Assembly (NCBI GenBank): GCA_963664325.2 | Contig: CAXXDQ010000005.1 | Coordinates: 1-64,000, forward strand | Direction: 5' to 3' | Origin: Desulfomonilia bacterium | GTDB taxonomy: Bacteria > Desulfobacterota > Desulfomonilia > UBA1062 | Length of the DNA stretch: 64,000 nt | Part shown: positions 9,476 through 44,370 of the stretch, one piece after another | How positions within the stretch are numbered: position 1 is the first letter of the stretch | Layout of the letters: every line of letters starts with the position of its first letter | Notes under the pieces: model-generated | Databases searched by the model: none | What the model saw: the letters and a program-made list of their open reading frames with translations, nothing else | Told to the model about the DNA's origin: nothing | Position numbers and translations under genes: made by a program

Positions 9476-12023
9476 ATGAGCGAATCAAGGGTATCGTGGG
9501 ATGAATCGACCGGCGAATATGTTGACAGCTCGATCATCAGGGGATTTCCGCTAGGCGGAATAGGTTCGGGCGGCATAACTATCGGTTCCGATGGCTCTTT
9601 TATCGAGGCCCGCTGTAACAACAACTGGATGAATCCTGTCAGGAATCTAAGGGGCTGTTTTTTTGCAGTGCATACTTCACAGGGAATCATAAAGAAAAGC
9701 CGCATCCTGCGCAGGGGATATGAGAGCGAATTCGGCAATATCGAGGGCATTGCCTCGACAAGGTTCAGGGGCGAATTACCTGAGTTCGAACTATGGTTTA
9801 AAGACAGCCTGCCGGTTGAGACCGCACTCTTTGGGTTCACACCGCACATCCCCCATAATATGAAAGATTCAACGATCCCGGCCGCGTTATTCTCCGTGAG
9901 GATCAGGAACATTTCGAATAAACCTGTTTTCATATCCGTGCTCTTTTCCTGGCAGAACATCCTGGGCTGCGGAGGAACAGGCCAGACCGGAATGATCATG
10001 CGAAGAAAGAGGGTGCCTGTCGGGCTGAGGGGAAAATTGACATACAGCGATGTGACCGGCAATTTCCAGGAGGCAGCAGATGCCGGTGTTATGCCCGCCA
10101 TAGCCTTCAAGACGAAACAATCGTTCGATCCGAAATCACACAGATACAGCGTACTGGGAGAATACCTCATTGCCGCCGATCCGCCGGACGGGTTCAGGGC
10201 CGATATCTGCGAAGGCTATGATGCAGGGGAATTGGCGCCCGCGATGCTGGACAGTTTTGTGAGGTCCGGCAGGATTAGTTCTCCTTCTGCGCCCGTTGTC
10301 GGTTCCGATAACGTAAGACCCGGAGCCGCTGTTGCAGTCCACGGAAACCTTGAGCCCGGAGGAAGCGCGGAACTGCCGTTTGATCTTATCTGGTGGACTC
10401 CGGGACATGTTACAGAAAAAAAACCCAAACTGAACTTAAAGAAAGGGATTCACGACGGTATAAGGGCCGGTCATGTTTATGAGGAATTTTTTAACGGCAG
10501 CACTGATGTTGCAGAATACCTGAAATCCCGGAGGAAAACGCCTTTACAGCGAATCCATGGAGCTGCCCGCCCTGCTTGATGAATCAAATCTGCCTGAATG
10601 GCTAAAACGATCAATAAAGAATTCAATTGATTCTGTCCTGTGCAACACCGTAGTCCCCGGGGACGGCCGTCTTTATACAATAGAGGGCATGGATTGGCCC
10701 TGGCCCTACGGCGGCCTGACAGGCACCAACGACCAGAGGATTTCTTCCCATCCTTACACGTCCGTTTTCTTCACCAGGCTCGACAGATCCGAACTGGATA
10801 CTTTCAGGAAGCTCACTGACGAACGGGGTTCGGTGCCGCACGGAAACGGCAACTGCGACCTTGCCCTGGGGGATGCGTCTGTCCCGTACGGCTGGCCCGA
10901 GGAGATAGTATTCGTCCTTGCGGCCAAGGAATGGACCGACCTTGCCGCAAGCGAGATCATACAGGCAGGAAAGATATTTCGGATGACCGGGGAGATTAAA
11001 TGGCTGGAGCTGTTCTGGCCCGACCTGAAACGCATGGCTGAATATATGGATAAAAACTGTGTTCATGGTGTTCCGGAGGGCGGCACGACCTATGACATCT
11101 GGCATTTCCCGGGTTCATTCATTTACTCGGCCACGGTTTATCTGGCAGCGCTTGGGATGATGGCAGACCTTGCGGAACAGATCGAACCAGGACTTGAAAC
11201 AATATACAGGAAACGCTCCGAAACATGCAAAAAACGCATCGATGAAGCCCTGTGGGACAAAGACAGGGGATATTTCAAAAGTTCGCCAGAGAGGCCTACA
11301 ATGTTCTGTGCCGCACTGGCCGGAGACTGGATAAGCCGGTATTCCGGACTGGGGCCCGTGCTTGAGCCCGAGAAGGCTGCAAGACACATGAACCTCGCAT
11401 ATAAACTTCTTATTGACGGGGCAAAAAATCTGCCCCGGTTTAAAGGCGCATTGCCCAAACCCATTGCCGAGATGACGCTTTCCGGCAGGGAGAAACTTGT
11501 ATTGCGAGGCTTTTTTGACGGCAACGTCCACCAGATATACATCTGGCAGGTCATAAGCTATCAGGCCTGCGAGCATATATATCTGGGTCAGGTTAAAGAA
11601 GGTCTGGATACGCTGAACATGATTTACTCACGGCTGGAAAAACTGGGTTATACCTTCAGCGCGAGCCTGACAGGCGAAACCGAGAGCATATACATGACAC
11701 ATCCCGTTGCCTGGTCTGTTCTGAATGCCTTTACCGGTGCTGCGCTCGATGTACCCAGGGGCATTTTACATCTCGGTCCGAGGATGATTCCGGGTGAAAG
11801 ACTGTTCAGGGTGCCGGTTTTCTTCCCGGGATTCTGGGCGATGCTGGAATATGATCCTGACAGGTTCCTGGCTGCAATCGATGTCAGGAAACATTTCGGT
11901 AAACCGGTTCTTATAAAATCTCTAATTTTCGATCAGGCCAAAGGAGGATCAAAAGAAATTTTGCTTGAAAAACCGATGCTGTTGGAGCAGGGTAGCAGGA
12001 TAACCATCAAGCTTGCATCGTGA
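9476..12023 (+). CDS. GH116 (GBA2-like) beta-glucosidase/xylosidase, frameshifted
   Basis: N-terminal GFPLGGIGSG and DSTIPAALF; catalytic-region motifs YTIEG, TNDQR, TTYDIW, AGDW. An extra A near 10537 splits 9476..10579 and 10557..12023. Confidence 0.75.
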
Positions 12024-30232: not shown

Positions 30233-31609
30233 ATGGAAGGAACAAAAAGCAATTTTAAAACAAGTTTCAAAACAAGGATGCTTTATTCACTTACAAGCCT
30301 GGGTATTTCAATTCATGGTGAAGCTATCAATAGCGGTATTGTAACATTTTTTGTGGTTGATACCTTAAGACTTTCAGCAGCGTGGTGGGGTATATTGGGA
30401 GTATTCATAGCGATATACCACGCTATTCTTACACCTCTTCTGGGATATGCCTCAGACAGGACAAAGTCAAGATGGGGCCGGCGAATCCCTTATGTTAAGT
30501 TTGGCATATACCCGTACGTGATTACATTTATTCTCATCTTCGCAATTCCCTTTAAGGGAAGAGATCATCCAATAGCATTACTTATCAGTTCCGGTTCATT
30601 GATGATAATATGGAATACCATTTATACCGCTCTTGCTACCGGTTATTACGGGTTGATGCCCGAGATGTTCACCGACTATATCGAAAGGACTGATGTTGCA
30701 GCAAAAATGAACATATTCCAGATAGTCGGCCTTTTTGTCGGTGTGGCGGTACCGCCAATACTGGCAGAAAAGATCGGGTGGCTGCCAATGGCGTTAACAC
30801 TGGGTTCGGTCGGTATAATTTCCATGTTTATAGGTAAAAGGGCATTGTTTGAAACTCACGATTCCAAAGAAATGGTTTATATACCATTTTTTAATGCCTT
30901 TAAGGTCACATTCTTCAACCGCAGTTTCTTGACGGCGGCGGTAGCTCAAGCCATGCGCTTTTTCAGTACCGGGATGTTGACAACCGGTATGTTCTTCTAT
31001 CTGAAATACAGCCTCAAAGTGGATACCGGCAATGCATCGACGATATTGGGTATTGCCTTCGTAACCGCCGCGGCAATGCTTTATCCGTGGAGGCAGTTCG
31101 TGGCCAACAAAACCGATTCCAGAGTCACGCTTATCCTTGCCGATATAGTAATGATTGCCGGAGTGACTGTTTTAGGGTTAGGCACTTCCCTGACAGTCGC
31201 TTATATTGCCGCCGTAATATTGGGGATTGGCCTTTCAGGTCTGGTTTTAAACGGCGATGTTATCACTTCAGAGGTGATCGATGAGGATGAGGTCAATACC
31301 GGGCTCCAACGCGCCGGTATGTACTTCGGGATGATGACTTTTCTTATCACCCTTAGCGGGGCTCTGAACTGGGCTATTTTCGGGTACATGATGCCTGCGT
31401 TCGGTTATGATACAAAACTGGATGTCCAACCTGCAAGTGTTGATGCGGGATTCCGGATGTTCATGACGATACCAACCATAATCGGGTTTGTATTATCCAT
31501 AATTGCACTCTATTTCTATCCTCTGCACGGGAAAAGGCTTAATGAAATAAAGGCTGCTCTTAAGGCAAAAGAAGAGGCCTCTGCTTCGGGAACCGGCATA
31601 AAACAGTAA
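30233..31609 (+). CDS. GPH family (MFS_2) glycoside:cation symporter
   Basis: GYASDRTKSRWGRRIPY, VIDEDEVNTG.QRAGMYFG, FYPL. Confidence 0.85.
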   Translation: MEGTKSNFKTSFKTRMLYSLTSLGISIHGEAINSGIVTFFVVDTLRLSAAWWGILGVFIAIYHAILTPLLGYASDRTKSRWGRRIPYVKFGIYPYVITFILIFAIPFKGRDHPIALLISSGSLMIIWNTIYTALATGYYGLMPEMFTDYIERTDVAAKMNIFQIVGLFVGVAVPPILAEKIGWLPMALTLGSVGIISMFIGKRALFETHDSKEMVYIPFFNAFKVTFFNRSFLTAAVAQAMRFFSTGMLTTGMFFYLKYSLKVDTGNASTILGIAFVTAAAMLYPWRQFVANKTDSRVTLILADIVMIAGVTVLGLGTSLTVAYIAAVILGIGLSGLVLNGDVITSEVIDEDEVNTGLQRAGMYFGMMTFLITLSGALNWAIFGYMMPAFGYDTKLDVQPASVDAGFRMFMTIPTIIGFVLSIIALYFYPLHGKRLNEIKAALKAKEEASASGTGIKQ

Positions 31610-31718
31610 AGGATGGCTGATGAAACAGACAGGCGGCATCCGGTAAATTTTCCAAAATATCCGGGCCGGCAAGGTTTGAAAAAGACTGATCCGGTTCCGG
31701 CCTGAATGTCCTAGTCTC

Positions 31719-33905
31719 TCAATCCTGTTTCTTGCGCTTGAGCTCCTCGCCGGGGCGGTATTCCGATTCCAGATGGCTGCGGATCTCTGACTCCCCGCGC
31801 CACACGGGTTTGAGCTCGCATCTGACGAAGAGCGGCGACTGGTCCGCATAGTGCGGCGAAGACCGGTCCAGCGTGGCGCTCCCGTACTGGTGGATGCTGC
31901 GCGAGTGCACGATGCCGTCCTTGTCCCAGGTCACCAGGAGCACATAGGAGTCTCCGAGGTTACCCTTGATGCGTCCGTCCTTCTGCAGATCGCCATCAAC
32001 GTCATGAAGAACGTCGGGACCGCCGCCGAGCCCGAGATCGACATGTCCCCGGATAAGCCGGTTGACCTGATCCCATCTGACATCAACACTGCCGAAATTC
32101 TTTGATAATGTCATAGCCGCTTTTTCGAAGCCCGCGAGCATCCGTTCATTCGAGATGTCCTTCACTTCCGGCTTCTCGGCAGTCTCAATGATGTTCATAT
32201 AACTCAGCACGGCCAGGGCTGCACCGCGGTTTTCCGGGTTTGTCTGCAGATTCCATGCGCCTAGAATCTTCCGTGCGTCCTTGAGCGTCTTGTCGCCGGG
32301 TTCGGGCAGGGCCATGATACGGCTGACCATTTTGGCCATCTTGGACCCGGGCGCATAGGCCATGTCGTATTTGTATGTGTAGAAGGCCTCTTCGGTGATC
32401 GAAGGATCTGCGCCCAGGAGTGCAAGCGCCCTCATGGAGCGGTTGGTCATGCGATCCTCGATCCCGAACTCCGGCGCGTAATCTTCCCTGCGCGGGTTCT
32501 CCGGATCAAGGGTCGTGTGGAAAGGCGTGTTGTTGCAGTTTATGACGAAACCGGATGCAGGATTCTTTACGCGGGGTAGCTTGTCATAGGGCAGGTATCC
32601 GGTCCAGAGAGTCTGAGATGTGTTGCCCGGTACTGCCTTTTTCCAGTCGAAACCCTTGGCCCTCAGCGGCAGGAGCGCCTGGTAGTGATAGAGGATATTC
32701 CCCTCCTTGTCAGCATAGGTGCAGTTGAACATCGGGAGTGTAGACATCCGTACGGCCTGTTCCCACTGTTCCATCGTGTGGGCCTTGTTCATTCGGTACC
32801 ACTGCTCCACCTGGCGGATATCGCCCATGCCCGCCCAGCGGATGGCAAAGACTCCTTGAGGCCTGCGTATCACCGGGCCGTAGACGGACCAGCCGACCTC
32901 CATGTTGACGGTCCAGTGGAGCGGTCCCAGCAGCTTGACTCTGATGGGTACCTTGCGGATTTCGAGGTCGCGCCACTGCCCGTCGTAGCGGTACTGGTTT
33001 GGATTATCTGGGTTCATTTCAAGGAAATATGTATCCACCAGGTCGGGGTAGTTGTTCGTATGCGCCCAGCCCAGGTATTCATTGTGGCCGTGAAACACCA
33101 CAGGCGAACCGGGGAAAGTCCCGCCGGTCATGTTCCAGCCATCCTCGCTGTGCACCTGCACCTCATACCATGTTACCGGCCCTTCCCAGGGCTGATGCGA
33201 ATTGATGGCCAGGAGCGTCTTGCCGTCTGAGGCGCGCCTGGGGGAAACAGCCATGGCGTTCGAGCCCGCCCTGAAGCCCAGCAGAGAGAAGTCCTCATTG
33301 CCAAACGATGACGCGAGCATGCTGTCCGCTGCGGAGGCCGTTTCAGTTTGATTTACTCCGAACAGACCCTCCAGCACCTTGTCTACCCCGACCATGAGCG
33401 GCATCTTGTGAACGAAGCCGGCCACTATATGCCTGCCGTTGATAGGGAAAAGTCCGGGGAAGGCCTCATCGGGATGCAGGGCCGCATAGTAATTGACACC
33501 GTCGGCATAGGCCTCGCAAAGAGCGCGTGTATCGGGACTCAGGTCGGTCTCGTACCTCGCATTGATGGTGTCCCACAGGCGCATAAGCTGTACCAGGTAA
33601 TCGTTTCCGGCCCATTTGCGTCCGGCCACGGTTGCCAGATTGCCGTTAACCGCCATCAGCACAAGCTGACTGGTCTTGAAGTCATCCTGGGCATGGGCAT
33701 AGGCGAGGCCGAAAGCCACATCGGTGTCCTTCTTGCCGAAGATATGAGGCACTCCCCAGGAATCGCGCAGGATATGCACGTCGTATTTCGCCGCCAACAA
33801 AGACGGATCCGGTTGGGCTGCGCTTCCGGGGAAGGCTGTAATAAGAATTAGGGCGAGAATCGTAAAGATAAAAAAATATTTGCATGGACCGGTTTTTAAA
33901 TACAT
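31719..33905 (-). CDS. Penicillin acylase family Ntn-hydrolase (secreted acylase)
   Basis: ILRDSWGVPHIFG, GSNAMAV nucleophile site, NSHQPW, NCNNTP, HYADQ. Confidence 0.88.
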   Translation of the reverse strand: MYLKTGPCKYFFIFTILALILITAFPGSAAQPDPSLLAAKYDVHILRDSWGVPHIFGKKDTDVAFGLAYAHAQDDFKTSQLVLMAVNGNLATVAGRKWAGNDYLVQLMRLWDTINARYETDLSPDTRALCEAYADGVNYYAALHPDEAFPGLFPINGRHIVAGFVHKMPLMVGVDKVLEGLFGVNQTETASAADSMLASSFGNEDFSLLGFRAGSNAMAVSPRRASDGKTLLAINSHQPWEGPVTWYEVQVHSEDGWNMTGGTFPGSPVVFHGHNEYLGWAHTNNYPDLVDTYFLEMNPDNPNQYRYDGQWRDLEIRKVPIRVKLLGPLHWTVNMEVGWSVYGPVIRRPQGVFAIRWAGMGDIRQVEQWYRMNKAHTMEQWEQAVRMSTLPMFNCTYADKEGNILYHYQALLPLRAKGFDWKKAVPGNTSQTLWTGYLPYDKLPRVKNPASGFVINCNNTPFHTTLDPENPRREDYAPEFGIEDRMTNRSMRALALLGADPSITEEAFYTYKYDMAYAPGSKMAKMVSRIMALPEPGDKTLKDARKILGAWNLQTNPENRGAALAVLSYMNIIETAEKPEVKDISNERMLAGFEKAAMTLSKNFGSVDVRWDQVNRLIRGHVDLGLGGGPDVLHDVDGDLQKDGRIKGNLGDSYVLLVTWDKDGIVHSRSIHQYGSATLDRSSPHYADQSPLFVRCELKPVWRGESEIRSHLESEYRPGEELKRKKQD

Positions 33906-34127
33906 ATTCCCTCCACGAAATATATGGCAATACTGTAAATCTACATCATAATATCAAGCCGTTCAAATTAAATTTAGTTCCCGGGAATCAATCAGCCAGC
34001 CGCCAGTTTACTGCCGCTCGATAAATCTCCATGGGACTTCTATACATGATAACTAAGCATACCGGGCCTTTTCCCGGGTTTGGATTTGCATATTGTTGAT
34101 ATTTGTCACGGCCTGCATTAATTGAGC

Positions 34128-34178
34128 TTGACATATGCAATCCATAAGGATTATTAATGGCAACTGGTAATACCAGAT
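34128..34178 (+). promoter_or_regulatory. Sigma70-type promoter with a FadR/GntR-type operator
   Basis: TTGACA at 34128, an AT-rich -10 region 17-18 bp later, then the palindrome CTGGTA-A-TACCAG (34164-34176), upstream of an operon encoding a FadR-family regulator. Confidence 0.6.
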
Positions 34179-34211
34179 GCCATCATATCATAAATTATAA
34201 AGGAGAAGATT

Positions 34212-35714
34212 ATGTCGGATTTTAATGTCATTGTTATCGGAGCAGGCTGCGGAGGGCTTTCGGCTGCGGCGCAGCTTGCAAAAAACGGGCGAAAGGTGCT
34301 TGTCCTCGAGCAGGCTGAAAGGATCGGGGGCTGCTGTTCAACCTACGAGCAGAACGGCTTCAAGTTCGACATAGGCGCATCCATAGTCGAAGCGCCGGAC
34401 CTGCTTAACCGCGTTTTCGCCAAGCTTGGGACCACCCTGGAAAAAGAGGTCGACCTTATCGATTGCGATCCCATCTATACCGTGATCCTGCGAGACGGCA
34501 GCCGCATCACCATCCCGAAGTCGATTGCCGGAACGGAAGAGGCGATCAAGGCTGTCGAGCCTGCGGATGTCGAGGGGTGGAGGAAATATTCGAAGCTGAT
34601 GGACGATTTCAGCGGCACGCTGAACGACTTCTTTACGGAACCGGCGATGTCGCTCTCTGACATGGCCAAGATCGTGAAGGGTTCGCCCGCAATGCTCAAA
34701 TACGGCTCTCTTTTCGCTTCCAGCTATCAGGACGTCTTCAACAAATACTTCAAAAATGAAAATATAAAGGAATCCCTCGCATACCAGACATTTTTCATCG
34801 GGCTGCCGCCTGAACTTGCGCCCGGCATATTCGCTGTCATCCCCTATCAGGAGCATTTCGGCCTCTATTATGTCAGGGGCGGAATGATCGGCATCCCGGA
34901 GGCATTGAGACGGTGCGGGGAAAAGTCCGGCATGGAATTGAGGCTTAAAACAAAGGTTAAAAAAATTATCATCAGAAATAAACGCGCCGTCGGAGTGAAA
35001 CTGGAAGACGGCACCGAGATATCCGCAGATGTTGTGGTATCCGATATAAACGCGAAGACGCTCTATCTGGACATGATCGGCGAAGAGCATCTTCCCTGGC
35101 TGGCCCGCATAGGGGTCAAGAGCTATGAGACCACCATTGCCGTGCCGATGCTCTATGTGGGCGTTGACTACAAGCCGCCGCTCAATTCCCACCACACCCT
35201 TGTGACGGTGCCCATGGAGGAGATGAACGATTTCTGGTGGAGCGATTACCGCACCGGCGGGTTCACGAAGCGCCAGTTCGCCATCATAAGCTGGACCTCC
35301 CAGTCCGACCCGAAGCTGGCGCCCAAGGGCAAGCATGTACTGATCTTTACTCTGCCGCCGTCGCTCAGGACCTGCGGCCAGAAGACATGGGACGAGGCAA
35401 AGCCCGAGATGATCGAAAAATACATCGACTACTATTCAAAGAATTACGTGCCCGGCCTGAAAGAGCACGTCCAGGTGGCCGAACTCGCCACTCCGATTGA
35501 TTTCGAGCGCAGGCTCGGAACCCCGGATGGAGGCATCTACGGGCTCAAGCAGGACATGGCGCATGAGACCATTTTCCGCCCGGCCGCCAAATCCAAGTCG
35601 CTCGAAGGGCTTTACCTGGTCGGCGCATCCACCCACCCGGGCGGCGGCGTTCCCACGACGATGGTGTCCGGAATAGTGGCTACAAACCTGATTGAAAAAT
35701 ATGAGAAAAAATAG
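34212..35714 (+). CDS. Phytoene desaturase (CrtI)-family FAD oxidoreductase 1
   Basis: VIGAGCGG, FKFDIGAS, YYVRGGM, TPIDFE, GASTHPGGGVP. Confidence 0.85.
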   Translation: MSDFNVIVIGAGCGGLSAAAQLAKNGRKVLVLEQAERIGGCCSTYEQNGFKFDIGASIVEAPDLLNRVFAKLGTTLEKEVDLIDCDPIYTVILRDGSRITIPKSIAGTEEAIKAVEPADVEGWRKYSKLMDDFSGTLNDFFTEPAMSLSDMAKIVKGSPAMLKYGSLFASSYQDVFNKYFKNENIKESLAYQTFFIGLPPELAPGIFAVIPYQEHFGLYYVRGGMIGIPEALRRCGEKSGMELRLKTKVKKIIIRNKRAVGVKLEDGTEISADVVVSDINAKTLYLDMIGEEHLPWLARIGVKSYETTIAVPMLYVGVDYKPPLNSHHTLVTVPMEEMNDFWWSDYRTGGFTKRQFAIISWTSQSDPKLAPKGKHVLIFTLPPSLRTCGQKTWDEAKPEMIEKYIDYYSKNYVPGLKEHVQVAELATPIDFERRLGTPDGGIYGLKQDMAHETIFRPAAKSKSLEGLYLVGASTHPGGGVPTTMVSGIVATNLIEKYEKK

Positions 35715-35783
35715 TGATGAATGGCCAATGGTGAGTGAAAAGCTGAAAAAAATGAAACTCTATTATAAAAAGGAGATAGAATA

Positions 35784-35918
35784 ATGAAAAAGATAATATG
35801 TTTGGGAGTCATAGGTGCATGCGCATACTGCTATACAAAGCTCACGGATTCAAAGAAGCGCTTCATCAAGGAATTCGCCAGGCAGATACCATACCTTGTA
35901 CCGCGCTATTTCGTATAA
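35784..35918 (+). CDS. 44-aa microprotein (MKKIICLGVIGACAYCYTKLTDSKKRFIKEFARQIPYLVPRYFV)
   Basis: AAGGAG RBS; fills the gap between the two CrtI-like genes; stop lies 12 nt before the next ATG; below the ORF-track length cutoff. Confidence 0.65.
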   Translation: MKKIICLGVIGACAYCYTKLTDSKKRFIKEFARQIPYLVPRYFV

Positions 35919-35930
35919 GGGCGGCTCATC

Positions 35931-37430
35931 ATGGCTGACTATGATGTAATCGTAATAGGCGCCGGCAACGGAGGGGTCTCCTCGGGCGCACTGCTCGCCA
36001 AACAGGGCCGCAAGGTCCTGCTCCTCGAACAGAGCTCCGCCGTCGGCGGGTGCTGTTCGACATTCGAGAAGGACGGCTACAAGTTCGATGTCGGGGCCTC
36101 GATTGTGGAGGTGATAAAGCCTATTGAAATGGCGTTTGCCAAGCTCGGCACCACATTTGCCAAAGAGGTCGACCTCATAGAATGCGACCCGGTCATGACC
36201 ATCATCGACCGTGACGGCAGCCGCATCACGTACCCGAAATCAATCGATGCCACGGCACAGGCCATTTCGGCCATATCGCCCTCGGACGGCAAACGCTGGT
36301 ACGAGTTCGTAAAGGTAATGAGCGAATTTACCGATGTGGCGCTGAATGCATTCTTCCCGGAGCCTGCCGACTCCCTGGCCGATGTCGCGAAGATGTTTGC
36401 GAAAAACCCGAAATTCCTGAAGTTCCTGCCGCTCTTTGTAAAAAGCTACCAGGATGTCATGGAGAAATACTTCAAGGATGAGCGGATCCTCAAGACCATG
36501 GGCTACCAGTCGCTCTATTTCGGGCACCCGCCCGCAATAATTCCGGGCATGTTCGCGCTCATCCCCTATACCGAGCATATGGGGGTCTATTACCCCAGGG
36601 GCGGCATGATACAGATACCCGAAGCCTTCAGGCGCTGCGGCGAGAAGCTCGGCATGCAGGTGAGGTTCAACACCCTTGTAAAGAAGGTCATGGTAAGAGA
36701 CGGCAGGGTCCAGGGAGTCATCCTTGCAGACGGCACCGAGATAACCTCGAAAATTGTGGTGTCGAACATCAACGCCAGAACGCTCTATCTCGACCTGATC
36801 GGAGAAGAAAACCTGCCATGCATGGTGAGAACGGGAATTAAGAGCTACAAGTATTCCAAGGGCGTACCCATGATTTATGTGGGGCTCGACTATACGCCGC
36901 CGCTTGATTCACATCACAGCCTGATTGCCGTAACACCTCAGGGCGTCAACGACTACTGGTTCAATAATGTGGAAAAGGGGATACTGCCCGAGAACAACTT
37001 CGGCCTCATCTGCTGGCCGACGCATGCGGACAAATCTCTTGCACCGGCGGGCCATCATGTGCTCAACCTCATTCCGGAAGGGTTTTACCGCCTTGAGGGT
37101 ACGAACTGGGACGAGGAAAAGCCGCGCTTCATCGAGCGCACACTAAAGGCCCTGGACAAATTTGCGATACCCGGGCTGATGGATCACATCAAGGTGCTGG
37201 AATGCACGTCGCCGCTCGATTTCGAGCGCAGGCTCCTTCTGCCCGAGGGTTCGATCTATGCCCTTCAGCAGGACCTGGCGGCGGCCGCGGTTTTCAGGCC
37301 CAATGCCCGCTCAAGGGCGGTAAAGGGGCTTTATCTGACAGGCTCGTCAACTCACCCCGGCGGCGGCGTTCCCACTACAATCGCTTCGGGCTATATTGCA
37401 TCTAATATGATAGAGAAATACGAACAGTAA
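35931..37430 (+). CDS. Phytoene desaturase (CrtI)-family FAD oxidoreductase 2
   Basis: VIGAGNGG, YKFDVGAS, YYPRGGM, GSSTHPGGGVP; colinear paralog of 34212..35714. Confidence 0.85.
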   Translation: MADYDVIVIGAGNGGVSSGALLAKQGRKVLLLEQSSAVGGCCSTFEKDGYKFDVGASIVEVIKPIEMAFAKLGTTFAKEVDLIECDPVMTIIDRDGSRITYPKSIDATAQAISAISPSDGKRWYEFVKVMSEFTDVALNAFFPEPADSLADVAKMFAKNPKFLKFLPLFVKSYQDVMEKYFKDERILKTMGYQSLYFGHPPAIIPGMFALIPYTEHMGVYYPRGGMIQIPEAFRRCGEKLGMQVRFNTLVKKVMVRDGRVQGVILADGTEITSKIVVSNINARTLYLDLIGEENLPCMVRTGIKSYKYSKGVPMIYVGLDYTPPLDSHHSLIAVTPQGVNDYWFNNVEKGILPENNFGLICWPTHADKSLAPAGHHVLNLIPEGFYRLEGTNWDEEKPRFIERTLKALDKFAIPGLMDHIKVLECTSPLDFERRLLLPEGSIYALQQDLAAAAVFRPNARSRAVKGLYLTGSSTHPGGGVPTTIASGYIASNMIEKYEQ

Positions 37431-37438
37431 GGAAAACA

Positions 37439-38161
37439 ATGAAAGAATTACTCAGACCATTAAAGACCGAAAGCCTCAAGGAGGTTTTCATTTCACGCTT
37501 CGAAGGGCTGATCCTGTCCGGGAGATTCTCTATCGGACAAAAGCTGCCTTCAGAGCGCGAGCTTGCCCTTCAGCTCGGAGTCAGCCGCCCTGTCGTGCAC
37601 GAGGGTCTTGTCGATCTGGCAACAAAAGGCCTTGTCTCCATGAAACCCAGGGTTGGCGCAGTGGTAAGCGATTACAGGAGAGAGGGTTCGATAACCATAT
37701 TGAACTCTCTTCTCAACTACCATCAGGGCAGACTCAGTCCCGAACTGCTCCAGGGCATGATGGACATGCGCAAGCTCATGGAAATGGAGACTGCGCGTCT
37801 TGCAGCCATCAACAGAAAGGAAGATCATCTTGCCGAATTGAGGGAGCTTGTCAAGGAAGAGGCGCTATTAAATCCAAATGAGATAGACAGGCTGATAGAA
37901 ATGGATTTCAGGTTTCACCATTTGATAGCAATGGCTTCGGGAAATGTGATATATTCTCTTTTCCTAAACTCGCTTAAAGAGGTCTATACGAACCTCTCAA
38001 GTGAATTTTTTGCAGACACAGGCATGGCTCCCGTTGTTTCCGTTTTCCACTCCCGGATGCTGGAAGCGGTGGCAAAAAAAGACGCAAAGAAGTCTATGGC
38101 GATCATGAAACAGATTCTCGATCACGGAGAGGAGCGGCTGAAGGCCGCCCTCAAGATATAA
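37439..38161 (+). CDS. FadR/GntR family transcriptional regulator
   Basis: KLPSERELALQLGVSRPVV wHTH; FCD domain DFRFHHLIA.ASGN. Confidence 0.92.
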   Translation: MKELLRPLKTESLKEVFISRFEGLILSGRFSIGQKLPSERELALQLGVSRPVVHEGLVDLATKGLVSMKPRVGAVVSDYRREGSITILNSLLNYHQGRLSPELLQGMMDMRKLMEMETARLAAINRKEDHLAELRELVKEEALLNPNEIDRLIEMDFRFHHLIAMASGNVIYSLFLNSLKEVYTNLSSEFFADTGMAPVVSVFHSRMLEAVAKKDAKKSMAIMKQILDHGEERLKAALKI

Positions 38162-38171
38162 GGAGGCATAT

Positions 38172-40682
38172 ATGGCAGCCGCATCTCTTCAGACAAAATA
38201 CCGTATCAAGGAACCGAAAGGCCTTTCCCCGCGCATCACATGGCTGAGGGATTATTTCTTCAAGGGTGTGAGCAGGGCATGGAACAACGAATATACTGCA
38301 TGGACCATGGGAGAACCCTGGGACGTTCAGTATAACGAGCTGACCTATTACATCGTGCCCGAGACTTACCCGTTCCTGCAGACGTTCCGCGCTTCGCTCA
38401 GTCAGGTCGCAAGAAAGGTCAGGCTGCCTAACGACTTCTGGAAGATGAGCCTGCCCGAACGCAGGGCCTGGTTCAACAGGGAGGTCGTGGTGAACTACCT
38501 GCCCCAGGAGATACTTCCAGGCGACCTTCTTGCCGGTTCCCGGTTCAACATCCACACGTCCATGTGCCTGACCGAGAAGGAGACAAAGGCCCGGGACAAG
38601 AAGATATTCGGCAAGACAGGCGCCCGCGCACGCATGAAGTGGTTCCATGATCACGGCTACGGCAATGCCGGCGCCACCTCCGGACACCTCATCCCCGGCT
38701 ACGAGCGCCTGCTCAAGATCGGCTGGAAAGGCGTTCACGCGGATATAAAGACAAAGTACGACGAGCTTTCGGCAACCGATAAAAAAGGCAAAAAAGGCGC
38801 CCAGCTCAGGGCCATGATTACCGCCTCCACTATGGCGCGCGACCTGGCCGCCAAGTACTCGGCGCTGTGCACCAGGCTTGCCGATGCCGAAAAGGATTTC
38901 ACCCGCAAAAAAGAGCTCAACACCATGGCGCACAACCTCAAGGTCGTGCCGTGGGAGCCGCCGCAGGACTTCTGGCAGGCCCTTCAGGCGCTGTGGCTCA
39001 ACCACATGCTGGTCATGAGCGATGAGAACTACCCCGGGCCCGGCGTTTCCTTCGGCAACTTTGACCGGATACTCGCTCCCTTCTGGGAAAAATCCATAGC
39101 CCAGGGCATGGACCGCGAATTCGGCAAGGAGATCATGAAGTGCATGTGGGTGCATGCCAACACAGCCTACGACGGCATGATACGCACCGGCGGCAACCAG
39201 GGCATAACGGCGGGCTTCGGCCAGCTGCTCACACTCTCAGGCCTCGGCCCTAACGGAAAAGACATGACCAGCGACATCACCTGGGCCGTGCTGGAAGTCA
39301 TAGACGAAATGACGCCCATACTCGAACCAAAACCCAATGTCAGGCTCCACAGGAATACGTCCGAAGAGCTGCTAGACAGGGTCGTCGACATGATCGAGAC
39401 CAGCCAGGGCGCACCGTTCCTGCTCAATTTCGACGAGCGCTCCATGGCCGGCATGATGCTCGAGGGCAAAAAGGCCGGGCTCACGCATCTCATCAATGAA
39501 ACAAACGTCAATGAATACGCGCCGGTCGGCTGCCTTGAAAACACAATGGTCGGCAACGACCGCTCGGGCACGGTCGACAACAACCTCAACCTTTTAAAGG
39601 CGGTCGAACTCGCGCTTACAGGCGGCAAAGACCTGCTCAAGTTCACGGACCCCATAACCATGATAGCCCAGCCTATCACCCAGGACGGGCCCGAGACGCC
39701 TGACCCGCGCACATTCAAGACCTTTGACGAATTCTGGAACTCCTTTGCCGTCCAGATGAAGTACATCGTTGCAAAATGCGTCGAAACATATGAACTCTCC
39801 GAGGAACTTCGAGCGCAGTATAACCCCACACCCTACCTTTCATGCCTGGTCAAGGGCTGCGCCGAAAAAGGCCTCGACATCACGCAGGGCGGCGCAGAGA
39901 TAAACTTCACCACTATCGAGGCCGTCACCTACGCAACGACAGTCGATTCACTCCTGGCCGTCAAATACCTCGTATTCGACAAAAAGGAATGCACCATGGA
40001 CGAACTCGTTAAAGCGCTTAAGGACAACTGGGCCGGCCACGAGGTGCTCCAGGCCAAGGCGAAATTCAAGGCCCCGAAATACGGCCGCGAGGACGACGAG
40101 GCGGACATGATGGCCAAAAAGGTCATGGACCTCTGGTGCGGCGAGACCTGGAAATATAAGACCGCATCGACCAACCGCCAGTTCCGCCCCGGCATGCTGA
40201 GCTGGAATTACTGGGTCGGCGACGGCTATGTCATGGCGGCCAGCGCTGACGGAAGGCCCAAGGGACAGTTCCTCTCCAACGCCATCTGCCCGTCTAACGG
40301 CGCGGACACAAAAGGTCCCACATCAAACACAAACTCCGTCGGCAAGGCGCTCGGCGGCAAAAGCGAAAACGGCGACTGGGAAGACTACCTCAACGCGCTT
40401 CCCAACGGCGCCAGCCATACCATCACCTTCAACCCATCGGTCCTGAAAGACCCCGAACACAAGGCCAAGTTCAAGGCATTCCTGAGGGCCTACGCGGAAA
40501 ACGGCGGGACCGCGCTCCAGATAAACATGCTCGACCCGGATATGCTCAAGGACGCCCAGAAACACCCGCAGGACTACCGCCACCTGCTCGTGCGGGTAAC
40601 AGGCTACAACGCCTACTTCACAAGCATAGGCCGCGAACTCCAGAACGAGGTCATCGAACGCCTGAGCCACTGCAAGTTTTAG
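38172..40682 (+). CDS. Glycyl radical enzyme (PFL superfamily, single-Cys eliminase-type), substrate unknown
   Basis: 836 aa; Gly loop LLVRVTGYN; Cys loop VGCLE; APKYG and ADGR motifs; no PFL Cys-Cys pair. Confidence 0.9.
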   Translation: MAAASLQTKYRIKEPKGLSPRITWLRDYFFKGVSRAWNNEYTAWTMGEPWDVQYNELTYYIVPETYPFLQTFRASLSQVARKVRLPNDFWKMSLPERRAWFNREVVVNYLPQEILPGDLLAGSRFNIHTSMCLTEKETKARDKKIFGKTGARARMKWFHDHGYGNAGATSGHLIPGYERLLKIGWKGVHADIKTKYDELSATDKKGKKGAQLRAMITASTMARDLAAKYSALCTRLADAEKDFTRKKELNTMAHNLKVVPWEPPQDFWQALQALWLNHMLVMSDENYPGPGVSFGNFDRILAPFWEKSIAQGMDREFGKEIMKCMWVHANTAYDGMIRTGGNQGITAGFGQLLTLSGLGPNGKDMTSDITWAVLEVIDEMTPILEPKPNVRLHRNTSEELLDRVVDMIETSQGAPFLLNFDERSMAGMMLEGKKAGLTHLINETNVNEYAPVGCLENTMVGNDRSGTVDNNLNLLKAVELALTGGKDLLKFTDPITMIAQPITQDGPETPDPRTFKTFDEFWNSFAVQMKYIVAKCVETYELSEELRAQYNPTPYLSCLVKGCAEKGLDITQGGAEINFTTIEAVTYATTVDSLLAVKYLVFDKKECTMDELVKALKDNWAGHEVLQAKAKFKAPKYGREDDEADMMAKKVMDLWCGETWKYKTASTNRQFRPGMLSWNYWVGDGYVMAASADGRPKGQFLSNAICPSNGADTKGPTSNTNSVGKALGGKSENGDWEDYLNALPNGASHTITFNPSVLKDPEHKAKFKAFLRAYAENGGTALQINMLDPDMLKDAQKHPQDYRHLLVRVTGYNAYFTSIGRELQNEVIERLSHCKF

Positions 40683-40707
40683 GAAGAGGCAATGCTGACA
40701 AAAACTC

Positions 40708-40833
40708 CACCTCCCCCAACCCCCTCCTGTCGAGGAGGGGGCTATGCGTTAACAAGAATTCGCACGCTGTGCGAATTCTTGTTAGCCGGTTGCCCTCTTG
40801 CCCTTGAGGGCAAGAGGGGTGGGAGATGGGGTG
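40708..40833. repeat. Triple-hairpin REP-like element between the GRE and its activase
   Basis: Stems CCCCCTCCT/AGGAGGGGG, TAACAAGAATTCGCAC/GTGCGAATTCTTGTTA (16 bp) and CCCTCTTGCCCT/AGGGCAAGAGGG. Confidence 0.7.
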
Positions 40834-40846
40834 CGAGGACTGTATC

Positions 40847-41809
40847 ATGAGTAAGGGAACAGTACTGGAGATTCAGAGGATGTCTACCGAGGACGGGCCC
40901 GGCATCAGGACCACGGTCTTTTTGAAGGGCTGTCCGCTCAAGTGCATATGGTGCCACAACCCCGAGAGCATACTGATGAAGCCGCAGGTTCACTGGATAG
41001 GTTCGCGCTGTATCGGCTGCAATATCTGTATTGATACGTGTCCTGACAAGGCGCTTTCAAGGGGCAAAAAGGGGATAGTGATTGACAGGAATATCTGCAA
41101 AGGCTGCGGGAAATGCGCGGCGGAATGCCCGTCGACGGCCATGGAGCTTCTGGGCCATGAGTGGGATGCGGACAAGCTGGTTGACGAGCTCATAAAGGAC
41201 AGGGCCTTTTTTGAGACATCCGGCGGAGGGGTTACGGTTTCCGGCGGAGAGCCCACCATGCAGGCCGAATTCACGGCAGAGGTGCTTAAGCTGCTCAAGG
41301 GCAAGGGCATTCACACGGCGCTCGATACCTGCGGATTGTGCAGGAGGGAATACCTGGAAGGGCTTTTGCCCCTGGCGGACATGGTCCTTTTTGATCTGAA
41401 GGTCATGGATTCCAAGCTTCACAGGGAATTTACCGGGGCCTCCAATGAGAAGATTCATGAGAACCTGCTCTTCATAAGGGACTGGATGAAGGAAAAGGGC
41501 TCGCCGAAAGAGCTGTGGATAAGGACGCCCATCATTCCGGGTGCGACGGACAACGGGAAGCTGGTTAAGGAGATCGGGAAATATATTGCAGCGAACATAA
41601 ATGATGTTGTCAATCGCTGGGATTTGTGCGCCTTCAACAACCTGTGCAGGGATAAATATACAAGGCTGGGCCTTGACTGGACATACCACGATTCGAAGCC
41701 TCTTAAAAAAGAAACGATGGAGAAGCTTGCGGAGGCTGCAAGGCATTCGGGCGTGAACCCGGAGATAGTCCAGTGGAGCGGCGCGACGCGGCTCGAAGAA
41801 AATGACTAA
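40847..41809 (+). CDS. Glycyl radical enzyme activating protein (radical SAM with ferredoxin insert)
   Basis: DGPGIRTTVFLKGCPLKCIWCHNPE; two CxxCxxCxxxCP motifs; GGVTVSGGEP. Confidence 0.93.
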   Translation: MSKGTVLEIQRMSTEDGPGIRTTVFLKGCPLKCIWCHNPESILMKPQVHWIGSRCIGCNICIDTCPDKALSRGKKGIVIDRNICKGCGKCAAECPSTAMELLGHEWDADKLVDELIKDRAFFETSGGGVTVSGGEPTMQAEFTAEVLKLLKGKGIHTALDTCGLCRREYLEGLLPLADMVLFDLKVMDSKLHREFTGASNEKIHENLLFIRDWMKEKGSPKELWIRTPIIPGATDNGKLVKEIGKYIAANINDVVNRWDLCAFNNLCRDKYTRLGLDWTYHDSKPLKKETMEKLAEAARHSGVNPEIVQWSGATRLEEND

Positions 41810-41838
41810 AATTAAAAAAATATATCAAGTTTTAAACT

Positions 41839-42009
41839 CAGGGCGTCAGAACGATGCAGACCTAGGAGCGACGAAGCGGAAATGCGAGGCATACTTTTGA
41901 CGTATGTCTCTTCGCCTTCGGCTTGAGGTGCGAAACAGGAAGCTCACGATCCCATTTTCGCAGCGTTTTCGCAAGGAGTGACAACGGTATGCGAAGTTAT
42001 CACGCCCTG
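41839..42009. repeat. MITE/REP-like palindromic element, copy B
   Basis: TIR CAGGGCGT...ACGCCCTG; its 3' part is a near-identical reverse complement of 43085-43174. Confidence 0.75.
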
Positions 42010-42025
42010 TAAGATGGAGGAGAGT

Positions 42026-42865
42026 ATGAGTAAGTTTACATCATTCACAAAGGACGATATGCTGGCTTTCGAACCCGAAGCCAAGCTCGGCTTTATCGCA
42101 ACGGTTACTCCCGAGGGCCTGCCGCATATAACGCTTATAACAGCCATGCGCGCCAAGGACGAGACGCACCTGATGTGGGGGCAGTTCACTGAAGGGTCTT
42201 CCAAGACAAACGTGCTCAGCAATCCCAAAGTAGCATTCGCCATACTCAACCTGGAGAAGAACCTCTGGCGCGGCAAGGCGCTCTATACGCATAACGTGAA
42301 GGAAGGCGAGGACTACGTCCTTTTCAACAACCAGCCCATGTTCAGGTACAATTCATACTTCGGCATACATACCGTCCACTACATGGACCTCGTGGAGACG
42401 GCCGGCAAGGAGCCGCTCAAGCTGCCCGCCATAATAGCGTCATCCCTGATTACCATGATAAAAAGGCCGTTTGCCGCAACCGGCATTAAGGAGCAGATCA
42501 TGAAGCCGTTTGCAGTGGGGCTCTTCAACGGCATGCAGACGCTCAAGTTCATATCCTGGATAGGCACCGACGGCTTCCCGAGACTGACCCCGGTATTGCA
42601 GGCCCAGGCCCCTGACAGCAGAAGGCTCGTCATGGTCCCGCTGGCCTATGGCGATGAGTTGAAGGAAATCCCTGAAGGCGCGGACGTGGCTGTTTACGGC
42701 GCGTCGTTCAGCATGGAGACCTGCCTGGTGCGCGGCAAGTATCACAGAAAGCCCGGCCTGATCCCGACCGTGGAGATAGACCTGAACTGGGTGTATAATT
42801 CGATGCCGCCGAATGCGGGGCAGGTATATCCGGAGATTCCACTACAACCGGTCACGCAGTTCTGA
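42026..42865 (+). CDS. Pyridoxamine 5'-phosphate oxidase-like (split-barrel) protein with two domains
   Basis: FIATVTPEGLPHIT...SKTNVLSNPKV and a second repeat FISWIGTDGFP; GGAGG RBS. Confidence 0.7.
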   Translation: MSKFTSFTKDDMLAFEPEAKLGFIATVTPEGLPHITLITAMRAKDETHLMWGQFTEGSSKTNVLSNPKVAFAILNLEKNLWRGKALYTHNVKEGEDYVLFNNQPMFRYNSYFGIHTVHYMDLVETAGKEPLKLPAIIASSLITMIKRPFAATGIKEQIMKPFAVGLFNGMQTLKFISWIGTDGFPRLTPVLQAQAPDSRRLVMVPLAYGDELKEIPEGADVAVYGASFSMETCLVRGKYHRKPGLIPTVEIDLNWVYNSMPPNAGQVYPEIPLQPVTQF

Positions 42866-42989
42866 TTCCGCTTCCCATTCAAACGCTTCCGTTGTCGGCT
42901 GCGTCGGAATGCTCCTCGGAGTACATAGATGAGTACACCTCGTCGCTTCCTCCTTGCCTCCTAGCAATCATCTCGAATGGAAAGCGGAA
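42866..42989. repeat. Palindromic MITE/REP-like element D
   Basis: TIR TTCCGCTTCCCATTC...GAATGGAAAGCGGAA; central GAGTACATAGATGAGTACAC; its reverse strand shares ctaggag and gacaacgg with copy B. Confidence 0.65.
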
Positions 42990-42999
42990 TTAATATGTT

Positions 43000-43174
43000 G
43001 GGCGTGATAACTTTGATGAGGGTTTTGACGGCCCTCACCCTTCGGGCACGACTACGTCGCGTCAATTTTCGTGATGCGAAAATTTGCATACCGTTCTCGC
43101 TCCTCGCGGAAACGTTGCGAAAATGGGATCGTGAGCTTCATGTTTCGCTCCTCAAGCCGAAGGCGATGAGGCAT
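43000..43174 (-). repeat. MITE/REP-like element, copy C (inverted, partial, interrupted by a hairpin insert)
   Basis: GGGCGTGATAACTT, then an insert of about 70 bp, then GCATACCGTT...CTCAAGCCGAAGGCGA, which is the reverse complement of copy B. Confidence 0.75.
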
Positions 43175-43390
43175 CATCTTGAATGCAGACCGGAATAATA
43201 AATAATTGTGAGCTATATTTTTAAAACTACAATAATTGGAAAAGTACTATATATAAATCAAGTTTGTGAACATAATTCGGATTATTGTTTATCTCAACAT
43301 AGTTTTTATTCATCATAAAATTATTGTAGAAACTATAACATGGTGATTTGTTATTTATATGATTTTGGAAAAAAGGCTAAAAGAGAATTA

Positions 43391-44281
43391 TTAAATTTCA
43401 CTGTTGATATGTATATGTGCAGTGAAAAGAAATCTAAAAGTCTCCAAAAAAATACATAACATAGTAAGACCTATATTAGCACTTGTTGAAAGTGTAAAAA
43501 TACAATCAAAAAATTCATAAATGAACCAGAATGAATAAATTCCCAACCAAATTTTTATAGGATATTGTAAGTAATACAACCAATAAGACCAAGTACGTTT
43601 TCTAAATAATCCATAAGTACCAATAAGTAATAGTGCTAAAAGTATAATAAAAAATATTATCTTCACCGATGTGTTATATAAATCAGATTGATTCTCAGAT
43701 GTTATCAAAACCAGTAAATATACAGAGAAACATATAATATCTAAAATTGACATACTATTAAGATATCTATAAGTATTTCTCTTGACATGACTTCTAATGA
43801 TACCAAATCTTATAAAAAGAAGTATTGGAAGAATTACAGGTAAAGCAATATTTATTACATCTGTTATTCCGATCTTAACCTTCACTGAAACATTACTAGG
43901 TGTTGAAGGTGGTGCGTCTTTAAATGGATATGGGAAATTTATATTTCTTGGTTTTCTATGCTCTATAATTGCTAATTTCTTTTCATATGATCGAATGTCT
44001 TCACTTAATAATTCAAAAGTTTTCTTAATTTGATATTTTTTTAATTCTGATATTTTGTCTTTTTTTGAAATCGTAACATATCTTATACTAAGTTCGTTTA
44101 TTCTATTATATGAATTAAATATTTTATCTCGAAGATCAATTGATTGTTTTTCATGTTCAATATTCAATTTTTCATTTTCTATGATGTTCTGTTTGTATTG
44201 CCAATAGATTCCACCTCCAAATATTGTACCTATAATAAAAGTTAAAATTGGAATGACTAGGTTTAATTTTGTATTCTTCAT
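43391..44281 (-). CDS. AT-rich hypothetical membrane protein
   Basis: Long ORF in very AT-rich DNA; N-terminal TM, coiled-coil-like region and about 5 C-terminal TMs. Confidence 0.6.
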   Translation of the reverse strand: MKNTKLNLVIPILTFIIGTIFGGGIYWQYKQNIIENEKLNIEHEKQSIDLRDKIFNSYNRINELSIRYVTISKKDKISELKKYQIKKTFELLSEDIRSYEKKLAIIEHRKPRNINFPYPFKDAPPSTPSNVSVKVKIGITDVINIALPVILPILLFIRFGIIRSHVKRNTYRYLNSMSILDIICFSVYLLVLITSENQSDLYNTSVKIIFFIILLALLLIGTYGLFRKRTWSYWLYYLQYPIKIWLGIYSFWFIYEFFDCIFTLSTSANIGLTMLCIFLETFRFLFTAHIHINSEI

Positions 44282-44292
44282 CACATCTGTCC

Positions 44293-44370
44293 AAAACAAA
44301 AGGTGTCAGGCCTTGAAATGGGACATAGTGATCAATTTGTCATTGATCAAGGCCAAGCACCTTTTGTTTT
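44293..44370. repeat. REP-like palindrome
   Basis: AAAACAAAAGGTGTCAGGCCTTGA...TCAAGGCCAAGCACCTTTTGTTTT. Confidence 0.75.

Follow-up and report, generated by a model that had tools for sequence, protein, structure and literature searches.

The 64,000-nucleotide (nt) stretch analyzed here (the window) is contig CAXXDQ010000005.1, positions 1 to 64,000, of a Desulfomonilia bacterium. Between 34,212 and 42,865 it encodes an operon of seven co-oriented genes that includes a glycyl radical enzyme (GRE), its activase, a FadR-like regulator, and two CrtI-family flavoenzymes flanking a microprotein. Comparison with related loci divides the operon into a conserved GRE cassette and an accessory CrtI-microprotein unit. 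The features are as follows, with lengths in amino acids (aa).

34165..34175, no strand: operator-like palindrome TGGTAATACCA, 47 nt 5' of the CrtI_A start; predicted FadR-like regulator site
34212..35714, + strand: CrtI-family flavoenzyme A (CrtI_A), 500 aa; TIGR02734, Amino_oxidase, NAD_binding_8
35784..35918, + strand: 44-aa microprotein; N-terminal hydrophobic helix and conserved C-terminal motif
35931..37430, + strand: CrtI-family flavoenzyme B (CrtI_B), 499 aa; TIGR02734
37439..38161, + strand: GntR-family regulator with FCD/FadR_C effector domain (FadR-like), 240 aa
38172..40682, + strand: GRE, 836 aa, Cys454-x-Glu456 and Gly811
40826..41809, + strand: GRE-activating radical S-adenosylmethionine (SAM) enzyme (activase, AE) with ferredoxin-like insert, 327 aa
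41810..42025, no strand: spacer with dispersed repeat element; inverted copy at 43080-43174
42026..42865, + strand: tandem split-beta-barrel protein, PNPOx/HupZ-like, 279 aa

All seven open reading frames (ORFs) are present, and Pfam and NCBIfam bear out the families that a preliminary description of this DNA had assigned to them. The gaps from the microprotein to the GRE, given there as 8 to 12 nt, measure 12, 8, and 10 nt. The remaining intergenic gaps are 69 nt (CrtI_A to microprotein), 143 nt (GRE to activase), and 216 nt (activase to PNPOx-like gene). Genes for bacterial microcompartment shell proteins, aldehyde dehydrogenase, or Bss-type subunits were not found among the annotated ORFs of 20-56 kb, where the Pfam and NCBIfam scan covered ten ORFs (30233-44299), and no phytoene synthase gene was found among the annotated ORFs.

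The GRE belongs to the superfamily by its PFL-like (PF02901, 401.9 bits) and Gly_radical (PF01228, 80 bits) domains. The RVTGY motif lies at residues 808-812 and the single-Cys GCLE loop at residues 453-456, as had been read from the sequence, and the Trp/Tyr-rich N terminus noted at the same time is reflected in a Trp plus Tyr content of 9.6% in the first 167 residues versus 5.2% in the remainder. The assignment to the Cys-x-Glu (CxE) eliminase/isomerase type also stands: Cys454-Leu-Glu456 is present, and it is invariant in 18/18 aligned family members. The known eliminase and isomerase GREs all carry a CxE loop in the account given in sections 5.6 and 5.7 of PMC13450708, and section 7 of this 2026 review describes whole GRE clades as still without a function. 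The proposal that the window GRE falls in no characterized cluster was supported, with every NCBIfam equivalog model scoring far below its cut-off. The scores and cut-offs in bits are 363 and 1100 for HypD, 290 and 1050 for CutC, 373 and 1000 for HpfG, 336 and 1000 for HpsG, 67 and 994 for PFL, and 400 and 678 for TIGR01774 (PFL2-3 subfamily); the IAD and HPAD cut-offs are likewise not reached. Among solved structures the closest to it are HypD (292 bits) and, next, glycerol dehydratase (GD; 269 bits).

Alignments made with phmmer place GRE His172 at GD His164 and HypD His160. They also place Pro290, Gly291, and Val468 of the GRE at GD His281, Ser282, and Asp447, and Pro290 and Trp678 at HypD Asp278 and Thr645. 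The glycerol-binding residues of GD are His164, His281, Ser282, and Asp447. Only His164 of these four is kept, and the enzyme does not group with the B12-independent glycerol dehydratases. His164 of GD is named in the superfamily review (PMC13450708). The window GRE has in common with the CxE GREs (HypD 6VXC, GD 1R8W, CutC, IslA/IseG, HpsG/HpfG, HplG, and YbiW/PflD) the PFL-like and Gly_radical domains, the single Cys-x-Glu, RVxGY, the conserved His (GD His164/HypD His160), and a dedicated activase with a ferredoxin-like insert. It differs from them in matching any solved GRE with at most 292 bits, in the replacement of the GD and HypD substrate-contact positions, and in its divergent N-terminal 167 residues. 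The cassette also has a constant tandem split-barrel partner and a GntR-type regulator, which are not described in the cited sections of PMC13450708. The activase is a GRE activating enzyme by its match to TIGR02494 (311.5 bits versus a cut-off of 174.35), with CPLKCIWC at residues 36-43. The window's genome (G000) encodes about 8 further GRE paralogs at 27-33% identity, one of which (C7:867387-869429) has an in-frame TAG and a match split into two pieces.

A species-representative scan returned 553 stretches that encode a GRE relative, and the neighborhood counts use the best 80 (at least 69% identical). Their record titles name Thermodesulfobacteriota, Spirochaetota, Chloroflexota, Bacteroidota, Myxococcota, and Binatota, and the 120 best GRE protein clusters are all at least 71% identical. 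The activase gene is 3' of the GRE in 62/63 testable species loci and the PNPOx-like gene is 3' in 56/56. The FadR-like gene is 5' of the GRE in 47/72. Other gene clusters near the GRE are each found in at most 7/81 loci. A GRE ortholog is present in 33/36 genomes of the window's family and in 0/24 of a second family that was searched. Conservation extends to four genes, which encode a FadR/GntR-type regulator, a CxE-type GRE, an activase, and a tandem split-barrel PNPOx/HupZ-like protein. They form a widespread orphan GRE cassette, an uncharacterized variant within a known superfamily. Among 301 Anaerolineae-class genomes sampled, 31 carry a sister GRE at 44-51% identity in place of the close ortholog (at least 66%).

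The regulator scores above the cut-offs for GntR (PF00392, 59.7 bits), FCD (PF07729, 69.4 bits), and FadR_C (PF07840, 63.8 bits), which places it in the FadR subfamily. It is not FadR proper (NF003444, 83.4 bits versus 189; TIGR02812, 80.9 versus 249.2). It shares with the self-repressing regulators of this subfamily the GntR helix-turn-helix, the FCD/FadR_C domain, and a T.GT...AC.A-type palindrome just 5' of the first gene, and it differs from the named equivalogs (FadR, NanR, GlcC, PdhR, and LldR) in falling below every NCBIfam cut-off. The window genome holds no second close copy of the regulator, and its paralogs are at most 28% identical.

The split-barrel partner is a member of its family by PNPOx_N (PF01243, 35 bits versus a cut-off of 28.1). 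The gene had been correctly recognized in the preliminary description, but its start was placed at GTG 41978. All 22 aligned homologs begin at the position matching ATG 42026, which has the ribosome-binding site GGAGGAG, and the alignment makes ATG 42026 the most likely start. An AlphaFold2 model shows two split barrels with a mean predicted local distance difference test score (pLDDT) of 87.7. The nearest solved folds are HupZ (5ESC) and small FMN/F420-binding proteins (Foldseek E values down to 3e-7), and the F420 subfamily model TIGR03618 gives 25 bits versus a cut-off of 79. Each half of the protein superposes on HupZ 5ESC, the Desulfovibrio FMN-binding protein, and PNPOx. It differs from these proteins in that two barrels are fused in a 279-aa chain, identity is at most 20%, and it is always encoded with the GRE. 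A search of the ESM Atlas with the partner returned only clusters of its own kind, unnamed or labeled PNPOx.

The two CrtI-like proteins belong to the crtI_fam family over their full lengths (TIGR02734, cut-off 238.1; CrtI_A 314.2 bits and CrtI_B 304.1 bits). Both have the GxGxxG motif of the FAD fold at residue 10, and they are 54% identical to each other. The best solved relative of CrtI_B is CrtI 4DGK (159 bits). None of the carotenoid equivalogs CrtI, CrtD, CrtO, and CrtISO was matched at its cut-off by these proteins, the best being CrtID at 242.6 bits versus 640. They look like ordinary CrtI-type enzymes with non-covalent FAD. They share with Pantoea ananatis phytoene desaturase CrtI (4DGK) and with CrtD/CrtN the full-length crtI_fam match and the N-terminal FAD fold. 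They differ from these enzymes in falling below the carotenoid equivalogs, in their strict-anaerobe host lineages, in having their own microprotein partner, and in adjoining a GRE cassette or sitting under the cassette's operator-like palindrome.

The microprotein has no Pfam or NCBIfam match. Its distribution was followed in a CrtI-side sample of 80 metagenome loci, each coding for a CrtI_B/A-like protein (51-90% identity). A microprotein homolog adjoins the CrtI gene on the same strand in 70/80 of these loci, usually 9-60 nt apart, and several of the ten loci without it are cut off by contig ends. The C-terminal motif is ..KRF...L.RQ.P.L..RY.., with Gln34, Leu38, and Arg41 invariant in the alignment. 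A search of 1.84 billion representatives with the microprotein profile gave 115 matches at E<=1e-3, and nearly all of these proteins have a length of 40-80 aa and carry the C-terminal motif; the few long matches fall in several short stretches and look spurious. The preliminary description had proposed modeling the two CrtI proteins together with the microprotein. A complex model of CrtI_B plus microprotein scored 0.88 versus 0.00 for the best of 3 controls. As the tool reports, the mark for this score is reached by 58/80 solved complexes and 2/110 mismatched pairs. At least 97% of the contacts are shared between runs, with a partner pLDDT of 85 or more. The modeled interface consists of microprotein residues 22-44, including Q34, L38, and R41, and leaves the helix free. 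The model supports the microprotein as a predicted binding partner of this CrtI clade. The possibility that it is a small subunit of the GRE was rejected: it goes with CrtI (70/80), and among 100 GRE-side loci it was found only in L061, L118, L119, and L120.

Several variants of these units were observed. A sub-clade with short microproteins of 30-33 aa (L192, L193, L197-L199, L202, L203, L205, L209, and L211) lacks the hydrophobic helix and keeps the C-terminal motif; these start 9-18 nt after the CrtI stop. The window's genome has a third CrtI-microprotein unit at C7:968823-972361 (L218), with co-directional genes after it for a PlsC-type acyltransferase (PF01553) and for a DUF169 protein. 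A further pair of CrtI paralogs, the genome's second twin, lies at C4:506209-517970 (L219) and has no microprotein match or operator. This twin is preceded by a ferredoxin-reductase-like gene (FAD_binding_6/NAD_binding_1/Fer2) and followed by genes for a 199-aa uncharacterized protein and an SGSH-type sulfatase, homologous to a pair beside the cassette in L028, L041, L052, and L078. At L163 (1355-9730) a microprotein-CrtI unit lies beside a different GRE of 991 aa, 27% identical to that of the window, together with the activase of that GRE, a further radical SAM gene, and a ferredoxin-reductase-like gene.

CrtI-like genes had been expected to be conserved beside orthologs of the GRE. This expectation failed: a close CrtI gene adjoins in 1/64 testable species loci (L061) and in 2/20 family loci. 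Among the latter, which have long flanks, the order CrtI_A-microprotein-CrtI_B-FadR-GRE-AE-PNPOx is repeated only in the two loci of the window's genus, L118 and L119. The other family loci comprise 17 with the bare four-gene core and one (L120, in G004) with the microprotein only, 5' of the regulator. Seen from the CrtI side, cassette genes adjoin 15/80 loci, and 5/16 among those with at least 4 kb on both sides. The commonest neighbor clusters of the CrtI clade after CrtI itself are the PNPOx-like gene (9 loci) and the GRE (8 loci). The linked gene orders are PNPOx-CrtI-microprotein, GRE-microprotein-CrtI-PNPOx, AE-microprotein-CrtI, and that of the window. The linked loci span two phyla. 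Adjacent cases in the GRE tree lie in a Chloroflexota clade (7/9 rows) and in the window's genus. In the CrtI tree the GRE-adjacent rows lie in three clades, the label needs at least 8-10 changes, and 12/39 rows of the B-type clade are adjacent. The 301 Anaerolineae-class genomes (the class of L061) include 3 with a CrtI_B-like gene (E<=1e-120) and 6 with a GRE ortholog (at least 66% identity). All 3 CrtI-positive genomes fall among the 6 GRE carriers, a count in which one of the three is the chosen center, related genomes are non-independent, and only five candidates were scored per genome. These data show that the link between CrtI units and the GRE cassette is real but facultative.

The sequence ACTGGTAATACCAGAT was found upstream of CrtI_A. 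A palindrome of the form TGGT-NNN-ACCA occurs 25-60 nt 5' of the regulator gene in 58/68 distinct loci; its usual sequence is TGGTAATACCA, with TGGTTTTACCA in Chloroflexota. The pattern TGGTNNNACCA has two matches in the 64-kb window, and only the operon copy has the AAT center. The palindrome is absent before the regulator gene in the window, L118, and L119, and lies 47 nt before CrtI_A instead. Because it is 5' of CrtI_A and not of the regulator, the CrtI block is placed between the operator and the regulator gene in this genus. We predict that the FadR-like regulator binds this palindrome. A site score of at least 16 within 200 nt upstream was found for 7/70 testable CrtI units of the metagenome loci, against a minimum of 16.1 among training sites and a 99th percentile of 7.2 across 323 control windows. 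Six of the 7 operator-bearing units have no cassette gene in the sequence covered, and the other (L160) lies 3.4 kb downstream of a cassette. The central triplet at CrtI units follows lineage (AAT/ATT versus TTT). No GntR gene was detected beside the unlinked CrtI units. A position weight matrix was built from regulator-upstream sites of other genomes, and its two best hits in the 4.3-Mb genome of the window are both 5' of CrtI genes. The best (C7:972348) is 35 nt before the third CrtI-microprotein unit, and the second is the window operon. Genomes G002 and G003 contain exactly 2 exact sites each, and in either genome the two precede CrtI units. G014 has its twin CrtI genes on one contig and the FadR-GRE cassette on another, with a copy of the site at each. 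Contig C20 of G004 (L120) carries three operator copies, at 11632, 12145, and 17055. One copy in G004 lies between a lone microprotein gene and a divergent HGD-D (2-hydroxyacyl-CoA dehydratase-type) pair, with the pair starting 184 nt from the second copy, and the CrtI_B ortholog of this genome is on another contig than its cassette.

We favor, with a probability of about 0.6, a two-module regulon in which a self-regulated operon combines the conserved GRE cassette with an accessory CrtI-microprotein unit. The partner pairing, the recurrent adjacency, and the common operator argue that CrtI-microprotein units belong facultatively to the GRE regulon. This organization is much more likely than any particular substrate class. 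The activase would install the radical on Gly811, by analogy with characterized CxE GREs. Glu456 would hold a hydroxyl group of the substrate, and Cys454 would then abstract a hydrogen from the carbon carrying or adjoining it. The neighboring C-O or C-X bond would be cleaved as an elimination or isomerization. We infer this hydrogen abstraction and cleavage next to a hydroxyl from its occurrence in every characterized CxE GRE. Enzymes of the 1,2-eliminase/isomerase class break a C-O, C-N, or C-S bond beside the carbon with the hydroxyl group. The split-barrel partner may bind a flavin or heme cofactor, or supply electrons. The second module would be a CrtI-family flavoenzyme with a microprotein of about 45 aa, duplicated here into A and B types. 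The microprotein C terminus is predicted to dock on the CrtI enzyme and its N-terminal helix to tether the enzyme to the membrane. This module is probably under the same repressor, because it lies between the operator/promoter and the regulator gene in this genus. The CrtI-microprotein units probably provide a membrane-associated flavin redox step on the same compound, a precursor, or a product in some GRE hosts. The reading to which we commit is an anaerobic pathway under repressor control: the GRE would cleave a hydroxylated compound that may contain glycerol, and in some organisms a membrane-tethered CrtI-microprotein flavoenzyme would add a redox step on compounds of the same family.

Several observations weigh against the two-module regulon. 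Seen from the GRE, a CrtI gene adjoins within the flanks in only that single species locus (L061). CrtI_B-like genes are missing at E<=1e-100 from 26/36 family genomes while 33/36 carry the GRE, and the GRE therefore works without CrtI. Neither cassette nor operator appears in the sequence covered at 59/80 CrtI loci, and the closest twin-CrtI relatives, L139 and L140, have no cassette within 8 kb. The GRE and CrtI trees are FastTree trees with local support only, and the metagenome rows were collected through CrtI, which biases the adjacency counts. The operator can be questioned as well. A reversed-pattern control gave 0-2 matches per genome, and about 2 exact 11-mers are expected per genome by chance. 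One exact site in the genome (C8:351501) has no adjacent ORF; we treated this copy as chance or a contig-end artifact. The palindrome also fits the generic operator consensus of the FadR subfamily. For the proposed chemistry, the mappable pocket stretches of the GRE (DENYPGPG, NDRSGTVDNN, and SWNYW) are polar or aromatic and invariant around the contact positions, a composition that does not favor a purely lipophilic substrate.

The unfavorable counts are what would be seen if the CrtI genes and the microprotein were unrelated neighbors, a genus-specific insertion upstream of an autonomous GRE cassette with no common function. The 1/64 species loci, the 17/20 family loci with the core only plus the one with the microprotein alone, and the cassette-free CrtI twins of L139 and L140 all fit such an insertion. 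The view from CrtI does not: cassette genes are the commonest neighbors of the CrtI clade, and they occur in differing gene orders. The operator is common to both modules, unlinked units included, with central bases matched by lineage, and the 3/3 CrtI-positive Anaerolineae-class genomes fall among the 6/301 with a close GRE ortholog. Chance neighborhood is an unlikely explanation.

Neighboring genes raise a different alternative, that the cassette serves glycerol, or a small derivative (glycerol-3-phosphate, a glyceryl ether, or a glycoside), as a second and non-canonical route, with CrtI only loosely associated. A true GlpK (NF000756, 693.7 bits versus a cut-off of 498) takes the place of the regulator directly 5' of the GRE in L011, L043, L066, and L068. 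These four form one Syntrophaceae-labeled clade, and against a glycerol route they are just 4/80 loci. A gene for a lactate-type major facilitator superfamily (MFS) transporter is found no more than about 2 kb from the cassette in L047, L066, and L068 and 5' of the GRE in L022. Among solved structures GD ranks second as a relative of the GRE, but its His281, Ser282, and Asp447 are replaced by Pro290, Gly291, and Val468, and in known glycerol dehydratases no role exists for the split-barrel partner, which is constant here. This route is improbable as stated. Other occasional neighbors are a 185-aa uncharacterized protein paired with a sulfatase, after the cassette in L041, L052, and L078 and before it in L028, and an aldehyde:ferredoxin oxidoreductase 3' of that pair in L041 and L078. 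The pair that follows the genome's second CrtI twin is 42% and 67% identical to the cassette-side pair. GlpK, the PlsC-type acyltransferase, the sulfatase, and the aldehyde:ferredoxin oxidoreductase are weak hints of a glycerol-containing or otherwise hydroxylated amphiphilic substrate.

The twin CrtI genes were the basis of an earlier idea, in which CrtI_A and CrtI_B would form an obligate heterodimer, microprotein included, for reducing a C=C bond in a lipophilic product or substrate of the GRE elimination. The two paralogs, at 54% identity, flank the microprotein in a tight operon, and the twin arrangement recurs in L139, L140, and G014. Precedents exist in the CtmAB limonene dehydrogenase and Delta24-SD, which as described in PMC4109377 and PMC11061730 have two CrtI-related subunits and an external electron-transfer chain. 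Their two genes are side by side in an anaerobic catabolic context, as here, and the ferredoxin-reductase-like gene beside the CrtI genes of the C4 twin and of L163 has a counterpart in CtmEF beside CtmAB. The window twins are 54% identical versus 26-27% for the subunits described in these papers, and about 500 aa versus 550-566 aa for CtmAB. PMC11061730 gives a covalent-flavin motif, G-F-L/R-x-N/S-T/L-H-A, in the N-terminal part of both subunits. Both the strict and a loosened form of this pattern are absent from the window proteins, which have GFKFDIGAS in A and GYKFDVGAS in B, and the CtmAB/Delta24-SD identity was rejected. The GRE-linked loci also speak against an obligate heterodimer, since most of them have a single CrtI gene with the microprotein (L061, L142-149, L164, L190, and L194-196). 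The A and B types each also occur singly, and the A-type clade is single beside GRE cassettes in L194 and L196. This model as a whole, C=C reduction included, is quite doubtful.

Very improbable, finally, is a regulon for oxygen-free breakdown of glycerol-based ether or isoprenoid membrane lipids (alkylglycerols and the archaeal-type lipids of anoxic sediments), in which the GRE would act on the glycerol head group as a radical C-O ether lyase, likened to HpsG (C-S) and YbiW/PflD (ring C-O) in cleaving next to a hydroxyl, while membrane-tethered CrtI-microprotein enzymes would process the hydrophobic chains and the GlpK, PlsC-type acyltransferase, sulfatase, and aldehyde oxidoreductase neighbors would handle the remaining pieces.

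A literature search found no paper that joins a GRE to a phytoene desaturase and nothing relevant on a CrtI-like protein with a microprotein. Among the papers listed, none pairs a GRE with a pyridoxamine-oxidase-like, split-barrel, or FMN-binding partner, and none is relevant to a GRE with ether or polyethylene glycol cleavage. A limonene paper (PMC12583861) and a benzene paper (PMC13101534) concern enzymes other than these. New here are the pairing of CrtI with the microprotein, the repeated linkage of this pair to the cassette, and the common operator; together they make a testable regulon out of a list of neighbors. GREs perform chemically hard reactions in anoxic habitats, and the clade of the window GRE is among the most widespread of those without a function, with about 70% identity across phyla. 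The regulator is a handle for fishing out the effector, probably the substrate itself or a metabolite close to it, and the second enzyme class, CrtI, narrows the possible substrates. The pathway would close a gap in anaerobic carbon turnover if its substrate were a compound common in sediments.

Upstream of the operon (window 30233-33905) are genes for a GPH/MFS-type symporter (+ strand) and a penicillin-amidase/PvdQ-like Ntn hydrolase (- strand); weak MFS matches aside, neither was seen beside the cassette at the other loci. The repeat in the spacer between the activase and PNPOx-like genes is missing from close relatives. It has 65 further blastn matches in the genome, and its inverted copy at 43080-43174 is just 3' of the PNPOx-like gene. 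The same spacer is about 23 nt in L118, a relative of the same genus, and about 190 nt in L119.

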